DNA of 7,848 nt, taken from IMG/VR virus record IMGVR_UViG_2778261058_000010, positions 1-7,848 of that record, one strand, 5' to 3'. Shown here in pieces: positions 1 to 7,848 of the stretch (the stretch's first letter is position 1; the number at the start of each line of letters is the position of its first letter). A program made the translations under genes and the position numbers. The notes below the pieces were generated by a model. It saw nothing but the letters and a program-made list of their open reading frames with translations. It was not told the DNA's origin and did not search any database. The stretch is from a virus. Taxonomy: Duplodnaviria > Heunggongvirae > Uroviricota > Caudoviricetes.

Positions 1-176
1 TGATGTCATGGCTGGCCTGGCTGCTGATGCTGCTGTATGCCTTTGCGCCCCTCAGTTATCTGTGTGGTCGCCCGTTAGCGGCGAACTGGCTGGCGGTGGG
101 GCTTAATCTGCTGTTCTGCGTGCTGGTGATACGTGCACGCGGGAACGTTTCAAAAATTCTTTCATTCCGGAGGTGA
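1..176 (+). CDS. putative holin or small membrane protein, possibly 5'-partial
   Basis: Reading frame 3 is open from the window edge (first ATG at 3) to TGA at 174-176. Translation shows two hydrophobic stretches (WLAWLLMLLYAFAPL; WLAVGLNLLFCVLVI) and a basic tail RARGNVSKILSFRR. The stop abuts the endolysin start (GTG 173 / ATG 179), which is the usual holin position. Not in the ORF track because it is short or truncated. Confidence 0.45.
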   Translation, partial: MSWLAWLLMLLYAFAPLSYLCGRPLAANWLAVGLNLLFCVLVIRARGNVSKILSFRR

Positions 177-178
177 GT

Positions 179-556
179 ATGTCGGGTAAATTCAGATTCA
201 GTCGTCGCAGTGAAAAAAATCTGGAGGGCGTTAAACCACAGCTGGTTGCTGTAGTTCGCCGTGCGCTGGAGCTGACGGAGGTTGATTTCGGTATTACGGA
301 AGGCCTGCGCAGTAAGTATCGCCAGAAACAGCTGGTCGCGGAAGGGAAAAGTCAGACCATGAACAGCCGCCATCTGACCGGTGATGCGGTGGATGTTGTG
401 GCTTATGTTGGCAGCCAGGTGTCATGGGACTGGCCTCTGTACGAGAAAATCGCGCAGGCATTTAAGCAGGCTGCCGCAGAGCTGGGAACTGCCATCGAAT
501 GGGGTGGGGACTGGAAAACACTGAAAGACGGGCCTCACTTTCAGTTGAAGTGGTGA
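179..556 (+). CDS. endolysin, peptidase M15 family (L-alanyl-D-glutamate peptidase-like)
   Basis: ORF 173..556; ATG at 179 is preceded by GGAGG at 169-173. Translation contains a Zn-ligand-like pattern, H-x6-D (SRHLTGDAVDV) and a later His (DGPHFQ), as I recall for M15/VanY-type phage endolysins. Stop TGA at 554-556. Confidence 0.8.
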   Translation: MSGKFRFSRRSEKNLEGVKPQLVAVVRRALELTEVDFGITEGLRSKYRQKQLVAEGKSQTMNSRHLTGDAVDVVAYVGSQVSWDWPLYEKIAQAFKQAAAELGTAIEWGGDWKTLKDGPHFQLKW

Positions 557-582
557 CAATTACTCTGTTAACGGAGGTGGTT

Positions 583-714
583 TTGAAAAAAGAAGAAGAT
601 AAACAAGAAGCCGCTGCATCAACAAATGCAGCGGCTGGTACCCAGCTTAATTCAGATTGGGTCGAGACGGTAAACTCTGAATTGCTGGCGCTGCTTAATG
701 AAGCAGGCTCTTGA
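583..714 (+). CDS. hypothetical small acidic protein (about 43 aa), uncertain
   Basis: In-frame TTG at 583 sits 5 nt after GGAGG (573-577) inside ORF 499..714. Product is Ala/Glu-rich with no transmembrane segment or lipobox. Its 3' end overlaps the 3' end of the convergent minus-strand gene. Could be non-coding. Confidence 0.25.
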   Translation: MKKEEDKQEAAASTNAAAGTQLNSDWVETVNSELLALLNEAGS

Positions 715-967
715 TTTTCTCCTCAATATCCTTCTGGCCTTCTGCTCGTGATGTATCAATGCCATCGGCAATCTGGTTGAGTGTCAACGCTATGATTTTT
801 TTATTGCGCATTCTTTCATCCAGATGGTTTGCCGTTTTGCGAAATGAATCTGCCAGTTCCGTTTTATCAAGGCCAGCTTGCTCTGCAAGCTTCATTGACA
901 GATGAACAATTGCTACCTGTTGACCGGCAAGAAGGGCGGCAATTAACTCAAGTTGTTCTTTAGTCAT
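695..967 (-). CDS. hypothetical protein (90 aa), phage late-region accessory gene
   Basis: ORF 695..967 on the minus strand. ATG (plus 965-967) is preceded by GGAG with a 5-nt spacer. Product is hydrophilic and helical-looking (MTKEQLELIAALLAGQQ...); I do not recognise a family. Confidence 0.55.
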   Translation of the reverse strand: MTKEQLELIAALLAGQQVAIVHLSMKLAEQAGLDKTELADSFRKTANHLDERMRNKKIIALTLNQIADGIDTSRAEGQKDIEEKIKSLLH

Positions 968-1035
968 AAATTCTCCAGTTACCTTTCATTAAATGCATGG
1001 GGATTTTATCAGTCGGTTAATAAAGGCAGAAGATT

Positions 1036-1224
1036 ATGGTTATGAACAGAAGACACTGGACACACAGAATGCCGCGAACGGCGGCGAAATGGGCACCGGT
1101 AGCGATACTGGTGCCTTTTTTCCTGGTGGGATGCGTCAGCCTGGATAAAGCGCGCCAGCTTTTCGATACAGCTTCTCAGGTCTGCGAAATTGTCGACGGT
1201 GTTCGGCAGTGTCTGCAGAACTGA
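1036..1224 (+). CDS. putative small lipoprotein
   Basis: ORF 1036..1224. Internal Met at 1069 begins a textbook lipoprotein signal: MPRTAAK, hydrophobic core WAPVAILVPFF, lipobox LVGC. The mature part is only about 29 aa and is not proline-rich. Start could be 1036, 1042 or 1069. Confidence 0.45.
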   Translation: MVMNRRHWTHRMPRTAAKWAPVAILVPFFLVGCVSLDKARQLFDTASQVCEIVDGVRQCLQN

Positions 1225-1244
1225 TCGCCTGTAAGAGCAGAATA

Positions 1245-1292
1245 TTTTGCTGAAAAATGAAGGATACGCCAGCGTCCGGAAAGCATGAAATT
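1245..1292. repeat. copy A of a 48-bp imperfect direct repeat (partner at 6420-6467)
   Basis: 1273-1292 (cgtccggaaagcatgaaatt) is identical to 6448-6467. The flanks gccagc and t.tgct.aaaaatga are also shared, with 2 mismatches and 1 indel. Lies in the intergenic region upstream of the 98-aa gene. Confidence 0.7.
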
Positions 1293-1398
1293 CTGTGTTT
1301 GTGGCTACTCAATAAAATAAATTCTTTCTGTCGCCGCGAATACTCAAATGTTGATCAGTGCCCGGTGCGGCGACGGGCTTCGATATCAGGAGACGATG

Positions 1399-1695
1399 AT
1401 GGAAAAAACAGAAAACAAACCGATTGTAATTGGTGCTGATGCTGCTCCGTTTAAGTTTGAGTTGTCTCAACTGGTGGAGATGCGCATCAGTGATGAATGG
1501 GGTGAGGTTAAAGCCCGCGCGCAGTATGCGGATGGCGAAAACCAGTACTTGATCCACTACAAAGCAGCTGATGGTCGCGCCACAACGGAGTGGTTTGGTG
1601 AGTCAATGCTGGAAGCAACAGAAGATGATCGCCATCCGGGCTGTCCGGTATTTGCCGGTATGAAATTACCGGAAGGCGCAGTTGTTACTGAGTAA
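1399..1695 (+). CDS. hypothetical protein (98 aa) upstream of HNH endonuclease
   Basis: ORF 1348..1695. ATG at 1399 is 5 nt after AGGAGA (1388-1393); an alternative ATG is at 1396. Stop TAA at 1693-1695. No recognisable motif. Confidence 0.55.
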   Translation: MEKTENKPIVIGADAAPFKFELSQLVEMRISDEWGEVKARAQYADGENQYLIHYKAADGRATTEWFGESMLEATEDDRHPGCPVFAGMKLPEGAVVTE

Positions 1696-1756
1696 CAGGC
1701 ATTACAGCAGCCCTTCAGTGAGGGGCTGCGATAATGCCGGTATTAAGGAGATTCCA

Positions 1757-2107
1757 ATGCCATCACGAATACCCCGCGCCTGTCGTAAGCGTGGATGTGC
1801 AGGCACAACAACAGACAGTTCGGGTTACTGCGATAAGCATCGCGGTGAAGGCTGGGTGCAGCACCAGCGCGGACTGAGCCGCCACCAGCGTGGCTATGGC
1901 TCAAAATGGACGGTGATTCGTGCCCGTATTCTGAAGCGCGATAAAGGTCTGTGTCAGTTGTGTCTGCGTGTCGGTGTGGTGAGCGAGGCGAAAACCGTCG
2001 ACCACATCATCCCGAAAGCGCATGGCGGAACAGACGCAGACAGCAACCTGCAGAGTCTGTGCTGGCCCTGCCATAAAGCGAAAACAGCGCGCGAACGAAT
2101 CAGGTGA
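1757..2107 (+). CDS. HNH endonuclease, phage packaging-associated
   Basis: ATG at 1757 within ORF 1682..2107, preceded by AAGGAG (1744-1749). Cys pairs (CRKRGC; CWPCH) and an HNH-like core (VDHIIPKAHGG...N) are present. It sits directly upstream of the terminase small and large subunit genes, as in HK97-like cos phages. Confidence 0.85.
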   Translation: MPSRIPRACRKRGCAGTTTDSSGYCDKHRGEGWVQHQRGLSRHQRGYGSKWTVIRARILKRDKGLCQLCLRVGVVSEAKTVDHIIPKAHGGTDADSNLQSLCWPCHKAKTARERIR

Positions 2108-2120
2108 TAATTATTCTCAC

Positions 2121-2181
2121 TTGTGGGGAGGGGCGGGTCAAATCCCTGCAACCCTGGCTGTCCGGGACCGCCCGCCAACCC
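2121..2181. other. candidate cos / packaging-initiation region (GC-rich HNH-terS intergenic segment)
   Basis: The 147-bp HNH-terS intergenic region contains a conspicuous G/C-rich block (ggggaggggcgggtc ... gggaccgcccgccaaccc) with partial dyad symmetry, then a T8 run at 2210-2217. In HNH-associated cos phages, cos lies between HNH and terS. Positional inference only. Confidence 0.25.
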
Positions 2182-2254
2182 TTCTTCGCATCGCCGCAGG
2201 TTCGAAAACTTTTTTTTGGGAATGTGATTAAACGATTGATAGGTAAAACCGATT

Positions 2255-2737
2255 ATGTCAGGACCCCCGAAAACCCCGCCACGCCTGCATTTGATACGAG
2301 GCAACCCCTCAAAGCGCCCCGTTAAAGACTCCAAAAAAACCGCTAAAAAGGACGAAAAAGGTCTCCCTAAAATTCCGCAGCATTTAGGGGCGCAGGGGAA
2401 GTACTGGTTCAGGCGAATGGCGGAAGAGCTGAATGCGGAAGGGATCATTTCTCAGCTTGATGCGCGTGCACTTGAGTTACTGGTGGAAGCCTACACCGAA
2501 TACCGGCATCACTGCGAAACACTCGATGTTGAGGGGTATACCTACCGCACGGAAACGCAGAATGGCGATGTGATGATCAAGGCACATCCGGCTGCGGCGA
2601 TGAAGGCGGATGCCTGGAAGCGGATCCGGGCGATGCTTGCAGAGTTTGGTATGTCACCGGCAAGCCGGGCGAAAGTAAATATCGCCGGACCGGATGATGT
2701 TGATCCGCTGGCAGAGCTTTTAAAAGCGAGAGACTGA
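2255..2737 (+). CDS. terminase small subunit, P27 family
   Basis: ORF 2255..2737 (160 aa). Basic Pro/Lys-rich N-terminus and overall composition match what I recall of P27-family small terminases. Stop TGA overlaps the terL ATG (cTGATGg at 2735-2739). Confidence 0.8.
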   Translation: MSGPPKTPPRLHLIRGNPSKRPVKDSKKTAKKDEKGLPKIPQHLGAQGKYWFRRMAEELNAEGIISQLDARALELLVEAYTEYRHHCETLDVEGYTYRTETQNGDVMIKAHPAAAMKADAWKRIRAMLAEFGMSPASRAKVNIAGPDDVDPLAELLKARD

Positions 2738-3930
2738 TGGCAAAAGTGGCTGACGGGATCCGCTACGCCGAACGTGTTGTTGCAGGAGAAATTGTCGCTG
2801 GCGAATTTGTCCGTCTGGCCTGCCAGCGTTTTCTTGATGATCTGAAGTACGGCGAAGAGCGGGGGATTTATTTCAGTGAACCCCGTGCGCAGCACATCCT
2901 GAATTTCTACAAATTTGTGCCCCATGTAAAAGGGGCGCTGGCAGGTCAGCCCATTGAACTGATGGACTGGCATGTTTTTATCCTCATTAATATTTTTGGT
3001 TTTGTCATTCCGCTGGTGAATGAAGAGACCGGGGAAGTTGTCATGCGCAGCGATGGCAGCGGACGCCCGGTGATGGTGCGCCGGTTCCGGACAGCGTACA
3101 ACGAAGTCGCCCGTAAAAACGCAAAATCAACCCTGTCATCGGGTATCGGTCTGTATATGACGGGGGCAGATGGTGAAGGCGGGGCTGAGGTGTATTCAGC
3201 CGCAACCACGCGTGACCAGGCCAGAATTGTGTTTGAAGACGCCAAAAATATGGTCAGAAAAGCCCGGTCGACACTCGGGCGATTGTTTGATTTCAACAAG
3301 CTGGCGATTTACCAGGAGCAGAGCGCATCAAAATTTGAACCGCTTTCCTCGGATGCAAACAACCTGGACGGTCTGAACATCCACTGCGCCATTATTGATG
3401 AGCTGCATGCACATAAAACCCGCGACGTGTGGGACGTTCTGGAAACGGCAACCGGTGCCCGTCTGCAGTCCCTGTTATTTGGTATCACCACGGCGGGCTT
3501 TAACAAGGAAGGGATTTGTTACGAGCAACGCGATTACGCCATCAAGGTATTGCGAGGCTATAACAGTGACGTGGAGGGCGCGGTAAAAGACGACTCCTAC
3601 TTTGCGATTATTTACACGCTCGATGAGGGAGATGATCCGTTTGATGAAACGGTCTGGCAGAAAGCGAATCCCGGCCTGGGCATCTGTAAACGCTGGGATG
3701 ATCTGCGTCGTCTGGCGAAAAAAGCGAAGGAGCAGGTTTCAGCACGGGTGAATTTTTTCACGAAGAAAGTAACATCACGCCGTAACAACAGTGCGACCTG
3801 TCCTGATTTTTTTAGTAACCAAATGAAAGAAAAAGATTTTTTCTTGTTCGTCGTTTTTGTTTTTTCTGGAAGGTTCTGGCTGTTTTCATCATTTGTGTAT
3901 TGCACTGTGTATTGCAAAAACGGGTTATAA
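2737..3930 (+). CDS. terminase large subunit (Terminase_1-like), C-terminally truncated, probable pseudogene
   Basis: ORF 2737..3930. Deviant Walker A (ARKNAKST), Walker B (IIDELH) and the W.KANPGLG motif are present. After NFFTKK (codon 344, about 3768) the translation becomes low-complexity and Phe-rich (VTSRRNNSATCPDFF...FLFVVFVF) and the DNA becomes AT-rich. The expected nuclease domain, roughly 200 aa, is missing. Confidence 0.75.
   Translation: MAKVADGIRYAERVVAGEIVAGEFVRLACQRFLDDLKYGEERGIYFSEPRAQHILNFYKFVPHVKGALAGQPIELMDWHVFILINIFGFVIPLVNEETGEVVMRSDGSGRPVMVRRFRTAYNEVARKNAKSTLSSGIGLYMTGADGEGGAEVYSAATTRDQARIVFEDAKNMVRKARSTLGRLFDFNKLAIYQEQSASKFEPLSSDANNLDGLNIHCAIIDELHAHKTRDVWDVLETATGARLQSLLFGITTAGFNKEGICYEQRDYAIKVLRGYNSDVEGAVKDDSYFAIIYTLDEGDDPFDETVWQKANPGLGICKRWDDLRRLAKKAKEQVSARVNFFTKKVTSRRNNSATCPDFFSNQMKEKDFFLFVVFVFSGRFWLFSSFVYCTVYCKNGL
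3894..3916. repeat. tandem 11-bp direct repeat upstream of the integrase
   Basis: tgtgtattgca at 3894-3904 and again at 3906-3916, separated by one base; ends 20 bp before the int ATG. Confidence 0.6.
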
Positions 3931-3935
3931 ATCAC

Positions 3936-5144
3936 ATGGCGCTAAACAAACTGAGCGATAAAAAACTTCGTTCCCTGCTTGGGCGCAGGAGTGAGAGGCA
4001 GGAAACCATCGCTGATGGTAACGGGCTTTCGGTACGGGTCAGTAAATACGGATGTGTTAGTTTTGTTTTCTTTTACAGATTGGCGGGAAGGGGAACCGCG
4101 CCCATCTGGCTGACACTTGGAAAATATCCTGATCTGAGTCTCAAATCAGCGAGAGAGATGCGCGATCAGTGTCGAACCTGGCTTGCGGAGGGCAGAGATC
4201 CACGGATTCAGATAAAAATTGAACGGGAAGCCACCTTGCAACCTGTTACCGTTCGTGAGGCACTTGAATACTGGCTTGATAATTATGCAATGGATAAGCG
4301 TAGGGGAGCAGAACATATCAGGCAGTGCTTTGGTAAACATATTTATCCGGTGATTGGTCATGTACCACTTAGTGATTGCTCTATATCTATGTGGATCAAG
4401 TGTTTTGACAAAATAAAAAAAGTAGCACCTGTACAGGCCGGAGCTTTGTTGCGTATATCAAAACAGGCGCTTAAATTTTGTAGGGTAAGAAAATACGCGA
4501 TTAGTCATGAAATTGATGATCTTGAGGTCTGTGATGTGGGAAAAAAGTCTGCGCGAAGAAGCAGGGTTTTAACAGATGATGAAATCAGAGATTTATGGCG
4601 AAGTATTAATACTGATTATGACAATCACGAATTATCATATGAAAACCGAATTATTTTACGTTTCCTGGTAGTTTTTGGTTGTCGACTGTCAGAAGTATTA
4701 CTGTCGTCCTGGGTAGAGTGGGATTTTGATAAGAAATTATGGCGCGTTCCCGCTGATCATAGCAAAAATGGCAGGGAAATAATCAGACCGATTCCTGATG
4801 GCATGTTTAACTGGTTAGTTACGTTAAAAAAAATAACAGGTAACAAAGAAAATGTGATTGGGTTTGATATGCGTCAGTGTACGGCAAGCGTAACTATCGG
4901 TAAGACATGGAAAAGGATGAAACACTCGGAAAAATGGACGGCGCATGATATGCGAAGAGTGTTTGCCACAAAGCTAAGTGATCATGGTTTTGAACATAAT
5001 GTGGTTGAACAGTTGCTTGGGCACACATTAGGCGGTGTTGCCGGGGTTTATAACAGAAGTCAGTATATGGACAGAAAAAAAGAAGCTATGAACTGGTGGT
5101 ACGACTATCTGAATAAGCTAATTAGTGGTGACGGTAATGATTGA
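3936..5144 (+). CDS. tyrosine site-specific integrase, P4-like
   Basis: ATG at 3936 within ORF 3900..5144. N-terminal arm-binding-like region (MALNKLSDKKL...GNGLSVRVSKYG...LTLGKYPDLSLKSAREMRD) and C-terminal catalytic region (HDMRRVFATKL...LLGH...GVYNRSQY) are typical of P4-type integrases. Confidence 0.9.
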   Translation: MALNKLSDKKLRSLLGRRSERQETIADGNGLSVRVSKYGCVSFVFFYRLAGRGTAPIWLTLGKYPDLSLKSAREMRDQCRTWLAEGRDPRIQIKIEREATLQPVTVREALEYWLDNYAMDKRRGAEHIRQCFGKHIYPVIGHVPLSDCSISMWIKCFDKIKKVAPVQAGALLRISKQALKFCRVRKYAISHEIDDLEVCDVGKKSARRSRVLTDDEIRDLWRSINTDYDNHELSYENRIILRFLVVFGCRLSEVLLSSWVEWDFDKKLWRVPADHSKNGREIIRPIPDGMFNWLVTLKKITGNKENVIGFDMRQCTASVTIGKTWKRMKHSEKWTAHDMRRVFATKLSDHGFEHNVVEQLLGHTLGGVAGVYNRSQYMDRKKEAMNWWYDYLNKLISGDGND

Positions 5145-5358
5145 AATAGTTACGCGTGAAGAACTTGAAAATGATAAAACAATCGACAGGATGATTAAGG
5201 AAGATGAATGTGCATGGTTAACAGCTCTTGGCCGGAGACACAGAGCATTACTTGAAAAGGAAGGAAAATTTCCACGGAAAATATGTATTGGCCCACAAAC
5301 AAAAGTCTGGCGCTTATCTGAGGTGCTGGAATGGGTAAAGGGTGAATGGAAACCCTGA
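5137..5358 (+). CDS. AlpA-family transcriptional regulator (helix-turn-helix)
   Basis: ATG at 5137 overlaps the int stop (ATGATTGA, 5137-5144), implying translational coupling. The 73-aa product carries the AlpA-like pattern (...LTALGRRHRALLEKEGKFP...W.LSEVLEWV). Confidence 0.8.
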   Translation: MIEIVTREELENDKTIDRMIKEDECAWLTALGRRHRALLEKEGKFPRKICIGPQTKVWRLSEVLEWVKGEWKP

Positions 5359-5382
5359 ACTAAATTAAATGAGATATAATCA

Positions 5383-5407
5383 ACCCGTCTTTTGGCGGGT
5401 TTTTTTA
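5383..5407 (+). terminator. weak intrinsic terminator-like hairpin between the two AlpA-like genes
   Basis: Short stem acccg / cgggt (5383-5400) followed by T7 at 5401-5407. The stem is only about 5 bp. Confidence 0.3.
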
Positions 5408-5421
5408 TAGGTGATATTTTT

Positions 5422-5700
5422 ATGCAAAAATTTATTTATCCTACACCCGAAGAACGCATTCAGATTCTGAAAGAACATGGCGAACCGTATGATCGCCGTA
5501 TACGCGAACATGAGTGTGCCAATCGTACCGGGCTTTCAAGAAGCAGACGTTGGGTACTTGAACAGGAGGGAGCATTTCCTGCTCGTGCTCATTTAGGGAA
5601 AGTGTCTGTTTCCTGGTTGCTCTCTGATGTGCTCTGGTGGGTTATGCATCCGCCAGGAGTAAAGGAAGTAAACAGCCCATACAAAAACGCCAATAAGTAA
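5422..5700 (+). CDS. AlpA-like helix-turn-helix regulator, second copy
   Basis: ATG at 5422 within ORF 5392..5700; AGGTGA at 5409-5414 with a 7-nt spacer. Contains an AlpA-like core (ECANRTGLSRSRRWVLEQEGAFP...VSVSWLLSDVLWW). Confidence 0.7.
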   Translation: MQKFIYPTPEERIQILKEHGEPYDRRIREHECANRTGLSRSRRWVLEQEGAFPARAHLGKVSVSWLLSDVLWWVMHPPGVKEVNSPYKNANK

Positions 5701-5709
5701 TTACCGACA

Positions 5710-5739
5710 CCCCCGCACCACGCAATGCGGGGTTTTTTG
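5710..5739 (+). terminator. Rho-independent terminator
   Basis: GC stem ccccgca (5711-5717) / tgcgggg (5726-5732) followed by T6 at 5733-5738, just after the second AlpA-like stop. Confidence 0.6.
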
Positions 5740-5757
5740 TATGTGAGGTAGAAAGTG

Positions 5758-6351
5758 ATGAATAAAAATATTGCCGCGACGGGCAAGGGTGACGCACGTC
5801 ATGTGAAAAAATTCTGTGATATTCGTGATCTGGTCGTTCTGCGCTTTGATAGTGTGAACGTTCGCGTGGTGTATCTGAACGGCGATCCGTGGTTTGTTGG
5901 CGCTGATGTGTGTGCGGCGCTGGAAATTAGCAACGTTACCGATGCTGTTTCAGTTCTGGATAGCGATGAGGTAATGACCCTAGCTTTAACCGAGGGTCAT
6001 TCAGGTAAGCGTGGTGGTGCCAGAAGTTGGAATGTTGTATCAGAATCAGGTTTTTACAAGTTGATCGCCAGAAGTCGCAAAGCTGTTAATCCTGGCACGT
6101 TCGCCCATCGTTTCAGTAATTGGGTATTCAGAAATGTGATACCGGGTATCAGAAAAACGGGGGCTTATGGTATCCCGTGGGGCGCATTACAGGATTTTTC
6201 CCGCCGCAAAGAGCAATACCAGATAAGTGCCAGTGAGAAGGGGAGGGCGCTACAGGCATGTAAGCGCAAAAAGCGTGAACTGGAGGAAGAAGAAAAAAGG
6301 CTGATACGTGAATATCAGCCTGAGTTTTACTTTGGTGAGCGTATTCAGTAA
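5758..6351 (+). CDS. Bro-N domain protein, putative antirepressor
   Basis: ORF 5755..6351 (GTG 5755 / ATG 5758; GAGG at 5745-5748). N-terminal segment VVYLNGDPWFVGADVCAALEISN is Bro-N-like; the C-terminus is basic/acidic and coiled-coil-like. Confidence 0.75.
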   Translation: MNKNIAATGKGDARHVKKFCDIRDLVVLRFDSVNVRVVYLNGDPWFVGADVCAALEISNVTDAVSVLDSDEVMTLALTEGHSGKRGGARSWNVVSESGFYKLIARSRKAVNPGTFAHRFSNWVFRNVIPGIRKTGAYGIPWGALQDFSRRKEQYQISASEKGRALQACKRKKRELEEEEKRLIREYQPEFYFGERIQ

Positions 6352-6419
6352 CCGCGTACGGTGCTGATTATACGGTACATCGTGTTAACCGGGAAGTTAC
6401 CCACCAGCAAGGCAAAATC

Positions 6420-6467
6420 TTCTGCTAAAAAATGACATATGGCCAGCCGTCCGGAAAGCATGAAATT
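6420..6467. repeat. copy B of the 48-bp imperfect direct repeat (partner at 1245-1292)
   Basis: See copy A. The 20-bp exact core is at 6448-6467. Lies in the convergent intergenic region after the Bro-N gene. Confidence 0.7.
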
Positions 6468-6509
6468 TTACAAAAATGGAAAATGAAGATTTTTATTGTG
6501 CTGGTGGGT

Positions 6510-6540
6510 AAAAACAAAAAGCGCCCCGTTGCCGGAGCGC
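6510..6540 (-). terminator. Rho-independent terminator (minus strand)
   Basis: On the minus strand: stem gcgctccg / cggggcgc (one G-U pair) with a GCAA tetraloop (plus 6521-6540), followed by TTTTTGTTTTT (plus 6510-6520). Confidence 0.6.
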
Positions 6541-6634
6541 TCTTGCGAACAATTAACCTACTGCGCAAAAAATGAATCTGTGCGGGGGGATTATATCAAC
6601 CGTGGTCGAAATGACCATAGTTGCAGGATAACAG

Positions 6635-6664
6635 GCAAAACAAAGGCCACCCGCTACGGTGGCC
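6635..6664 (-). terminator. Rho-independent terminator (minus strand)
   Basis: On the minus strand: stem ggccacc / ggtggcc (plus 6645-6664) followed by TTTGTTTTG (plus 6635-6643). About 130 nt downstream of the 50-aa gene stop. Confidence 0.55.
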
Positions 6665-6794
6665 CCTTGACACAAGCTACACGTTATCCCCAACGCATGA
6701 GCATAGCCAACAATGCCACATTTACGGCTGGTGGGCAAATCCTGAGCTGTTCTGTAATTACAGGAACTACGGCATTGTCGCGGTTAGGTTATGC

Positions 6795-6947
6795 TCAACT
6801 TTTTTTCAACTCTATATCGCAAGCACGCCGTAATATATCGCCTTCATTGCTTCCGCAAAGATTCTTTTTCTCGAAGCATGATTTTAAGATAAAGGCGGCG
6901 ACAATTAGAACAATCGCACAGAGTGCACAATTTTTAAGTTTTGGCAT
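6795..6947 (-). CDS. small membrane peptide (50 aa), single transmembrane segment, Cys-rich; not in ORF track
   Basis: Hand-translated from the minus strand: ATG (plus 6945-6947) is 6 nt after AGGAG (plus 6954-6958). Product MPKLKNCALCAIVLIVAAFILKSCFEKKNLCGSNEGDILRRACDIELKKS; stop TGA (plus 6795-6797). Second gene of the minus-strand pair. Confidence 0.4.
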   Translation of the reverse strand: MPKLKNCALCAIVLIVAAFILKSCFEKKNLCGSNEGDILRRACDIELKKS

Positions 6948-7001
6948 CTTTTACTCCTATGGTTGCCGCCGTGATTCCTCACACCACGGCGCTGATAGTA
7001 A

Positions 7002-7181
7002 TTATTCTGATTCTTTGGCCTTGCGGCGCTGGCGGCGTTTGATCTCGCCACGCATGGCTGTAACGATAAACTGCGCGTCTGTTTCGTTTTCCTCTTTGAC
7101 AAAATTCATTTCGCTTAAAACTTCTAGAGGGATTCTAGCCGTTTTTTGTTGTGATTTGTTGTTGGTTGTACCCGTTGGCAT
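7002..7181 (-). CDS. small putative DNA-binding protein (59 aa), possibly ribbon-helix-helix-like
   Basis: Internal ATG of ORF 7002..7349 (plus 7179-7181) is preceded by a perfect AAGGAGG (plus 7189-7195) with a 6-nt spacer. Product MPTGTTNNKSQQKTARIPLEVLSEMNFVKEENETDAQFIVTAMRGEIKRRQRRKAKESE. The strand/helix-like pattern and basic tail suggest a small regulator; fold assignment is inference. Confidence 0.5.
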   Translation of the reverse strand: MPTGTTNNKSQQKTARIPLEVLSEMNFVKEENETDAQFIVTAMRGEIKRRQRRKAKESE

Positions 7182-7247
7182 TACTGGCCTCCTTACTGTT
7201 AGGTGGCGTTCAGTATACGTAGAAAAAAAAATAAAAAAAGGCTTGAA

Positions 7248-7293
7248 GTGCAAGTCACCTAAAAGTAGCATAACCCTCAAAGGTGACTTGCAC
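7248..7293 (+). promoter_or_regulatory. 13-bp perfect inverted repeat with 20-nt loop; candidate operator or structured leader RNA
   Basis: gtgcaagtcacct (7248-7260) is the exact reverse complement of aggtgacttgcac (7281-7293). Preceded by A9-T-A7 (7222-7238) and followed by a second imperfect hairpin (7305-7337). Sits between the divergent minus-strand pair and the Icd-like gene. Confidence 0.4.
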
Positions 7294-7374
7294 CTTAAAG
7301 ACAAAGCCCCGCAAGTGTCGTTACCACTCGCAGGGCTTCTAACCACCAACGATAACGAGAGTATCGAGGTAGCT

Positions 7375-7581
7375 ATGAGAAATCATACCACACACCCGCA
7401 AGGGCGGGACTCGCACAACCTGAATAAATATATCTGGCGTTTTATCGCTCTGAGCACGGCACAACCGCGCGTGATTACCATTGAGGCCACCAGCGAACAG
7501 GAAGCACGCCAGCAATCTCCTGATGGCTGTGTGATGGTATTCGCCGCCCGTATTCGCCAGGGGGTGCACCATGTGCAATAA
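7375..7581 (+). CDS. Icd-like (host cell division inhibitor-like) small protein
   Basis: ATG at 7375 inside the spurious long ORF 6496..7581; GAGG at 7366-7369 with a 5-nt spacer. The 68-aa product (MRNHTTHPQGR...VITIEATSEQEARQQSPDGCVMVFAARIRQ) resembles Icd-like proteins of P4-like elements as I remember them. Confidence 0.5.
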   Translation: MRNHTTHPQGRDSHNLNKYIWRFIALSTAQPRVITIEATSEQEARQQSPDGCVMVFAARIRQGVHHVQ

Positions 7582-7831
7582 CCCACGTCCGGACGCAGCA
7601 GCCGCCGCGCTCACTACGCTGATGCACGCGCTGATTGATATTTCATGCACGGCAGCAAACGTAGAAAAACACATTGCCAGAGAGACGGAATATGCTGGGG
7701 CTTTAGTTCCTCATTCACTGGCTGTTATGCAACTTAGTGCTGATATGGCACTGAATGAGGCCAAAGCCATCCTGATTGCTGATTGTGAAAATGGGGGGGG
7801 GTTATGCGTGATGATCGTTTTAATGCCCTGA
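7571..7831 (+). CDS. hypothetical protein (86 aa); reading frame depends on the G9 tract
   Basis: ATG at 7571 overlaps the Icd-like stop (ATGTGCAATAA). The frame ends shortly after the G9 run at 7793-7801. One extra G would fuse it to the downstream ORF. Confidence 0.3.
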   Translation: MCNNPRPDAAAAALTTLMHALIDISCTAANVEKHIARETEYAGALVPHSLAVMQLSADMALNEAKAILIADCENGGGLCVMIVLMP

Positions 7832-7848
7832 AACAGGAATTTGATGGC
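7804..7848 (+). CDS. hypothetical protein, 3'-partial (runs off the window)
   Basis: ATG at 7804 immediately after the G9 tract, which could serve as a Shine-Dalgarno sequence. Translation MRDDRFNALKQEFDG... is open to the window end. Confidence 0.3.
   Translation, partial: MRDDRFNALKQEFDG

Follow-up and report, generated by a model that had tools for sequence, protein, structure and literature searches.

Among the described systems closest to the locus studied here are the contingency loci of Neisseria, Haemophilus, Campylobacter and Bordetella, in which slipped-strand mispairing acts on a run of 7–11 G or C within a coding sequence, and single-base differences in its length among close relatives shift the reading frame. 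Coupled overlapping genes offer a second comparison, with stop and start codons arranged as ATGA or ATGnnnTGA and the Shine-Dalgarno (SD) site inside the upstream gene. At programmed frameshift or transcriptional-slippage sites such as those of lambda G/GT, dnaX and the IS3 and IS630 transposases, a repetitive run at the 3' end of one open reading frame (ORF) joins it to the following ORF, which lies in a different frame. With regard to the carrier, the island described here has the integrase and AlpA of the Enterobacteria PICIs and cf-PICIs, and relatives of the island have a primase/helicase module, to which capsid, protease, portal, HNH and terS or Nu1-type terS genes are added; according to PMC10085698, PICIs and cf-PICIs have their integrase-proximal modules in common.

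Here, we describe a poly-G tract in a phage satellite of E. coli, located where two small genes, ORF1 and ORF2, adjoin. Although the tract resembles those of the contingency loci, no gene would be turned off by its changes in length, which yield a split gene pair, a tailed ORF1 or a fusion with the downstream start kept, and the tract is carried by a phage satellite of E. coli. The form with eight G (G8) has exactly the layout of a coupled overlap, as do all other operon junctions in relatives, but the SD site is here a pure homopolymer long enough to slip, so that the coupling geometry is polymorphic. By contrast with lambda G/GT, dnaX and the IS3 and IS630 transposases, the tract keeps to no set slippery motif or length, is accompanied by no stimulatory structure, consists of G instead of A or T, and, as far as the data go, gives rise to fusions through genomic length alleles and not through recoding.

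The explanation that we favor, and regard as likely, is that a homopolymer derived from an SD site slips in replication at the coupled ORF1/ORF2 junction, its various lengths being tolerated, and that the variation arises as a mutational by-product and is not a regulated switch. Such a mechanism belongs to a known kind, and its setting is without an earlier description in the literature searched: our searches of work on PICIs, cf-PICIs and E. coli prophage-like elements found no description of such a poly-G tract. If correct, this explanation would make the locus a clear natural case of a ribosome-binding site that has become a slippage hotspot, repeatedly fusing and splitting two genes and killing neither.

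Results

Genomic setting

The window, by which we mean the whole 7,848-nt stretch of DNA that was analysed (positions 1–7,848 of IMG/VR record IMGVR_UViG_2778261058_000010), contains one end of a satellite with an integrase and an AlpA-type regulator, as in PICIs and cf-PICIs, and breaks off within ORF2 (Table 1). The operon to which the tract belongs has the gene order Icd-like, ORF1, ORF2, ORF3, DUF4222 and primase-helicase in homologous islands, and the first of these genes is annotated as "host cell division inhibitor Icd-like protein" at homologous E. coli loci. Past ORF2, the homologous islands encode a third small ORF, a DUF4222 protein, an AAA_25 or DUF927 primase-helicase and SSB, followed farther along by capsid, protease, portal, HNH and terS genes, by lambda E/D-type capsid genes, or by a Nu1-type terS. 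Island L063, which is 94–96% identical to the window over the aligned parts, encodes DUF4222, AAA_25 helicase, SSB, capsid, protease, portal and HNH. The setting of the tract matches the replication/early operon of an E. coli PICI/cf-PICI-type phage satellite, the primase and capsid genes being known from relatives.

Table 1. Positions in the window of the tract, the genes that flank it and the left part of the satellite.
Feature	Position	Strand	Remarks
Tyrosine integrase, left end of satellite	3900..5144	+	Pfam Phage_integrase, Arm-DNA-bind_3
Two AlpA-like genes (5125-5358, 5392-5700) and BRO-N anti-repressor-like gene (5755-6351)	5125..6351	+	Pfam Phage_AlpA; regulatory part
Icd-like gene, 68 aa	7375..7581	+	First of the coupled string; stop overlaps ORF1 start by 11 nt; phrog_6196, E = 2.5e-46
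G5 Shine-Dalgarno-like run	7560..7564	+	6 nt upstream of ORF1 ATG (CAGGGGGTGCACCATG); predicted anti-SD duplex -10.7 kcal/mol; same design in relatives
ORF1, G9 allele, 86 aa	7571..7831	+	Residues 1-74 are a conserved helical-hairpin protein (phrog_5146); ends ...ADCENGGGLCVMIVLMP, then stop
Poly-G tract, here G9	7793..7801	+	Codes C-terminal Gly of ORF1; putative Shine-Dalgarno site of ORF2; G6-G11 among homologous islands
ORF2 5' end (MRDDRFNALKQEFDG...)	7804..7848	+	Cut by window end; 77 aa in relatives; phrog_24341
TGA closing ORF1 in canonical G8 allele	7809..7811	+	ATGCGTGA, 8-nt overlap; out of ORF1 frame in the G9 window
TGA closing ORF1 in G9 frame	7829..7831	+	28-nt overlap with ORF2

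The satellite sits inside the large-terminase gene of a lambdoid prophage (2737–3930 in the window, preceded by HNH at 1682–2107 and terS at 2255–2737). This TerL ORF encodes the ATPase domain and, of the nuclease domain, no more than its first 68 positions, and then runs into island DNA just ahead of the integrase, whose true start is probably the ATG at 3936. The layout of L063 is the same, with its satellite within a TerL gene; integration of satellites inside prophages was previously reported in a preprint cited by PMC10085698. The window carries a tandem pair of AlpA-like genes, and most of the related islands retrieved have a single AlpA gene. A TTG-started ORF of 361 aa (6496–7581) takes in the Icd-like gene and the DNA upstream of it. 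Relatives are annotated here with an incomplete "ash family" pseudogene and an opposite-strand YlcI/YnfO gene, and some databases name "Icd-like" proteins of 288–311 aa there; the 361-aa ORF is probably an over-extended call across a decayed gene.

Reading frames at the junction

Positions 7787–7806 of the window read GAAAAT-GGGGGGGGG-TT-ATG, followed by CGT, with the ATG at 7804–7806. The initial annotation had described nine consecutive G at the end of ORF 7571–7831 and immediately before ATG 7804, and the sequence bears this out, with 2 nt between the run and the ATG; on either strand of the window, it is the sole run of at least seven G. On composition alone, at least three G7 matches were obtained in 14 of 200 dinucleotide shuffles (~7%), and as a single copy the run is unremarkable. 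We regard the tract as real and not a product of chance because it recurs at the same junction in 737 of the 5426 complete E. coli genomes and on 51 metagenome contigs.

The length of the tract sets the frame in which ORF1 leaves it. With G8, ORF1 is a 79-aa protein ending in ...GGGYA and ORF2 a 77-aa protein, the two sharing a ATGCGTGA stop/start overlap of 8 nt. With G9, as in the window, three tract-coded glycines are followed by nine last residues (LCVMIVLMP) that are an out-of-frame reading of the 5' end of ORF2, and the overlap of the ORF1 stop with the ORF2 start grows to 28 nt. With G7, a single fused protein of 154 aa (...ADCENGGVMRDDRFN...) is encoded, and with G10 a fused protein of 155 aa (...ADCENGGGVMRDDRFN...); the earlier expectation that a tenth G would merge the two frames was thus correct, and both kinds of fusion exist in nature. 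The ATG of ORF2 and its predicted SD site are retained in the split, tailed and fused frames alike.

Existing annotation follows tract length, with two coding sequences at G8 loci and one of 154 aa at G7 loci; the first four E. coli homologues retrieved were all G8 or G7 loci, the former annotated with a gene pair and the latter with one gene of 154 aa. PHROGs likewise holds three families for this one locus: phrog_2512 for the fusion, phrog_5146 for ORF1 alone and phrog_24341 for ORF2 alone. Tract length explains these three families (2512, 5146 and 24341), and also why annotations of the locus disagree, some giving one gene, some two and some a "frameshifted" gene.

Sites of programmed recoding, too, usually consist of a long homopolymer that closes one ORF and is followed by an ORF in a different frame, and the commonness of G7 and G10 alleles indicates that fusions are viable. 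Ribosomal frameshifting or transcriptional slippage on the G run might accordingly produce a fixed share of fusion protein from split alleles. We consider this highly improbable, since tract length is not fixed (G6–G11) and the shift required depends on the allele, being +1 from G8 and -1 from G9. Folding found no stable RNA structure 3' of the tract (z = +0.74 and -0.76), and no Rfam family matched in the window. At other sites in E. coli, transcriptional insertions in homopolymers were found in A/T runs only, and G/C runs were reported not to be slippage-prone (PMC5574713), which argues against transcriptional slippage on a run of G. Furthermore, ORF2 has a conserved start of its own and is an independent gene in relatives.

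The tract as a ribosome-binding site

The initial annotation also proposed that the tract might simply be a G-rich ribosome-binding site for the downstream gene. Stand-alone ORF2-like genes, predicted pairing with the anti-SD sequence and a junction that lacks the tract all point in this direction. The predicted duplex with the 3' end of 16S rRNA has an energy of -9 to -11 kcal/mol for G5–G12 and about -11 kcal/mol for G7–G12, and the canonical GGAGG-type junctions of the operon give -9.4 to -11.6 kcal/mol.

An exhaustive profile-free search of 1.84 billion cluster representatives returned only 45 relatives, most of them separate ORF1-like (72–84 aa) or ORF2-like (75–77 aa) proteins. The distant ORF2-like proteins start exactly at the Met encoded by ATG 7804, and their upstream neighbors differ. 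At loci without the tract, ORF1-like and ORF2-like genes are always separate and lie, with different neighbors, in strings of small genes whose junctions are stop/start overlaps of 4, 8 or 11 nt, each with a GGAGG- or GGGGG-type site upstream. One tract-less relative has GGAGGTGGGG-C-ATG at the aligned position, which matches the G8 allele base for base; in locus L070, where the ORF1-like gene ends CAGGAGGTGGGGCATGCATAA, this alignment is with AATGGGGGGGGTTATGCGTGA of the G8 allele. From the separate genes of relatives and the agreement of the tract-less junction with the G8 allele, we infer that the tract is an SD site turned homopolymer, with G8 as the canonical length and two separate genes as the more ancient arrangement. 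G8 reproduces the standard coupling geometry of the operon, and most simply, the non-G positions of the SD site have become G.

On the preferred reading, an SD element would have turned into a homopolymer that slips during DNA replication, and slips of one base would give either a fusion (G7 or G10) or the tailed ORF1 with its 28-nt overlap into ORF2 (G9). Every length state should be tolerated, because ORF2 keeps its own ATG and a run of at least five G would stay a strong ribosome-binding site. Given the retained ATG and SD site, ORF2 would be made whatever the tract length, and the one thing to vary would be the C-terminus of ORF1, which is free, tailed or fused. Judging from the sequence, translation of ORF2 would presumably be equal in all states and the variation neutral.

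The junction between the Icd-like gene and ORF1 (7560–7581) is built similarly, its SD-like site being G5 and its overlap (CAGGGGGTGCACCATGTGCAATAA) 11 nt long. A few proteins in the databases join Icd to ORF1 or to ORF1-ORF2 (P0010, 219 aa; P0140, 135 aa), and this junction too is therefore occasionally frameshifted.

Distribution of tract lengths

Complete E. coli genomes were searched with 44–48-nt core queries, one for each tract length, and the junction was found at 883 places in the 737 genomes. Exact matches were obtained for G6 in 7 genomes, G7 in 382, G8 in 204, G9 in 182, G10 in 28 and G11 in at least 3, the G7 count being inflated by clonal O157, O145 and O26 strains. A pattern scan of metagenome contigs, most of them short-read NODE assemblies, gave 51 loci with full flanks, of which 11 were G7, 26 G8, 12 G9 and 2 G10; two of the 51 runs were followed by an interruption. 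Fused proteins are also represented in a large protein collection, where ENGGVMRDD (G7) heads 55 clusters and ENGGGVMRDD (G10) heads 47. A search with the ORF2 protein was discarded as a census of fused and split clusters, as 77-aa forms dominated its list and known fused clusters were omitted. A scan of one genome per species yielded only Shigella flexneri and one chance match, and nothing informative beyond Escherichia/Shigella.

All length states are thus found in nature at appreciable frequency. Set against plain neutrality, pure runs persist across ORF alleles that are up to 42% apart in DNA sequence, and few alleles fall below G7 (G6 occurs in 7 complete genomes and in none of the metagenome contigs). 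Pure runs and scarce short alleles could reflect selection that keeps the tract long; on this question, the sample is biased, as most loci were ascertained by a pattern requiring the tract. As long G/C runs are otherwise rare in E. coli coding DNA, a tract that stands at 7–10 G over hundreds of islands is convenient for measuring slippage and its tolerance.

Length change and its interpretation

The ORF1 allele of the window occurs in four length states, as G8 on 76 contigs, G9 on 49, fused G10 on 8 and fused G7 on 2. Across the 51 metagenome loci, the ORF1/ORF2 flanks differ by up to 42% in DNA sequence, and tract length is scattered over the flank tree. Of the seven pairs whose flanks are identical, six agree in tract length and one does not (G8 or G9); all five pairs with flanks less than 0.5% diverged differ in tract length, and the fraction of differing pairs is at the value expected at random (0.64) once the flanks are about 5% diverged. 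From this comparison, it follows that the tract mutates much faster than single sites, yet identical sequences are not randomised. Match lengths in an isolate series named from one source strain are all consistent with G7.

Some of the variation is technical. Two assemblies of strain 97-3250 (L060 and L061) differ in 6 kb only at the tract (G9 versus G10) and at an A7/A8 run at position ~5319. We rejected this pair as evidence of switching, the sole other difference being another homopolymer, which points to assembly error. Part of the length variation in complete E. coli genomes is assembly error; homopolymer lengths in long-read "complete" genomes are not fully reliable, and the tract flags a site where long-read assemblies disagree. 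Might the G9 of the window itself be a homopolymer sequencing or assembly error, the true allele being G8 or G10? The 97-3250 assemblies, the G6 calls in clones that are otherwise G7, and the G8 of the closest complete-genome relative of the window stretch (95.9% identical) would all agree with such an error. However, 49 contigs (82 index blocks) from many independent assemblies encode precisely the 86-aa protein of the G9 frame, with islands at several chromosomal integration sites, and G9 was present in 12 of the 51 metagenome contigs, mostly short-read assemblies. From these two counts, the G9 allele is genuine in nature; an error in the single call of the window, which the initial annotation had listed first among its explanations, is needless to account for the window and in our estimation very unlikely.

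The initial annotation further raised the possibility of a slipped-strand, phase-variable switch. Its first half holds at the population level, where lengths of G6 to G11 occur, G8 and G9 are both seen between identical flanks and a single ORF1 allele has four length states. Close homologues do not show a stable short G-run between two conserved genes; lengths vary among them. The second half, a phase switch, is weakened by the lack of a clear OFF state, as ORF2 retains its own start.

In its adaptive form, phase variation would involve a long tract maintained by selection as a reversible switch between separate ORF1 and ORF2 and the fusion, perhaps together with a tract in ORF3. Differences in tract length among near-identical sequences, a sharp lower limit at G7 and uninterrupted runs retained across very divergent alleles would be expected of such a switch, as would a second variable poly-G in ORF3 type B, 343 nt downstream, and, in some islands, a C run as a third variable tract. 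Nevertheless, the start and SD site of ORF2 are present in every frame, dN/dS is equal for fused and split alleles, and in the less clonal metagenome sample, lengths are roughly symmetric about G8 (11/26/12), as in plain stepwise slippage. The six of seven identical-flank pairs that share a length, together with the isolate series, suggest a moderate rate, 8 of 10 copies of the ORF3 tract are frame-broken, which resembles decay, and the ascertainment of most loci via the tract reduces the weight of the long, pure runs. We therefore consider adaptive phase variation unlikely, and the same low probability applies to the idea that it diversifies the dealings of the satellite with helper phages or the host. 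If it were a true switch, the locus would exemplify phase variation on a phage satellite; unless switching proves fast or functional, its importance is modest.

Selection on ORF1 and ORF2

ORF1 and ORF2 matched no Pfam family, and their PHROG matches are all of unknown function. BLASTP found no similarity between the two, and a paralogous relationship was rejected. Pairwise dN/dS is ~0.37 for ORF1 and ~0.30 for ORF2, and fused-fused pairs equal split-split pairs; both ORFs are under purifying selection. ORF2 is intact (73–79 aa) in 56 of the 60 loci examined.

These values bear on the notion that ORF1 and ORF2 are dispensable in resident cryptic islands and that their frameshifts mark the onset of pseudogenisation. 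The adjacent ORF3 type B, mostly frame-broken and annotated as "frameshifted", and the rare Icd-ORF1-ORF2 triple fusions would agree with such decay. It is nonetheless extremely improbable, given purifying selection on both ORFs across large divergence (dN/dS 0.30–0.37) and an ORF2 that is destroyed in none of the three frames.

Modelled with AlphaFold2 (mean pLDDT 60.5), the fusion is predicted to comprise a helical hairpin (residues 9–73) and a three-helix module (80–146) joined by a low-confidence linker, which is compatible with two independent modules that tolerate tethering. When this model was compared with the PDB by Foldseek, the matches were generic helical hairpins and none had an E value under 1.

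In loci L062–L069 (genes at 8001–8261 and 8234–8467), a single ORF1 allele, identical throughout, is accompanied by no fewer than six ORF2 protein alleles and also by different integrases, integration sites and capsid modules. The conserved junction of ~45 nt may serve as a recombination joint between gene cassettes.

Other homopolymers in related islands

One ORF3 allele type (type B, MDKIPFDV...) carries midway along its length a second variable poly-G (G7–G10), ~343 nt downstream of the tract at the ORF1/ORF2 junction; this poly-G was seen at L066:8566, L068:8567, L039:4778, L038:442, L020 (minus strand), L007, L045:8930 and L056. Only 2 of 10 copies are in the frame of the full protein (L020, 69 aa; L038 by reading, with the ORF start off the contig), and PGAP labels ORF3 type B "frameshifted" in L001 and L002. 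L063 has the other ORF3 type, without a tract. The second poly-G would fit the design of a contingency locus as well as simple decay. That the junction tract, the ORF3 poly-G and perhaps a third C run form a set of contingency switches, through which clonal satellites hedge replication control or helper interaction by being split, tailed or fused, is in our judgment distinctly unlikely.

Further G/C runs of at least seven were located at L039:11201 (C9), L069:13162 (C7) and L041:9332 (C9 followed by A9). One of these, the ACGTAAT-Cn-TGGTGAC run, is of unequal length in two loci and, in L069, sits in the distal part of the island. For E. coli DNA, long G/C homopolymers may be uncommonly abundant in these satellites.
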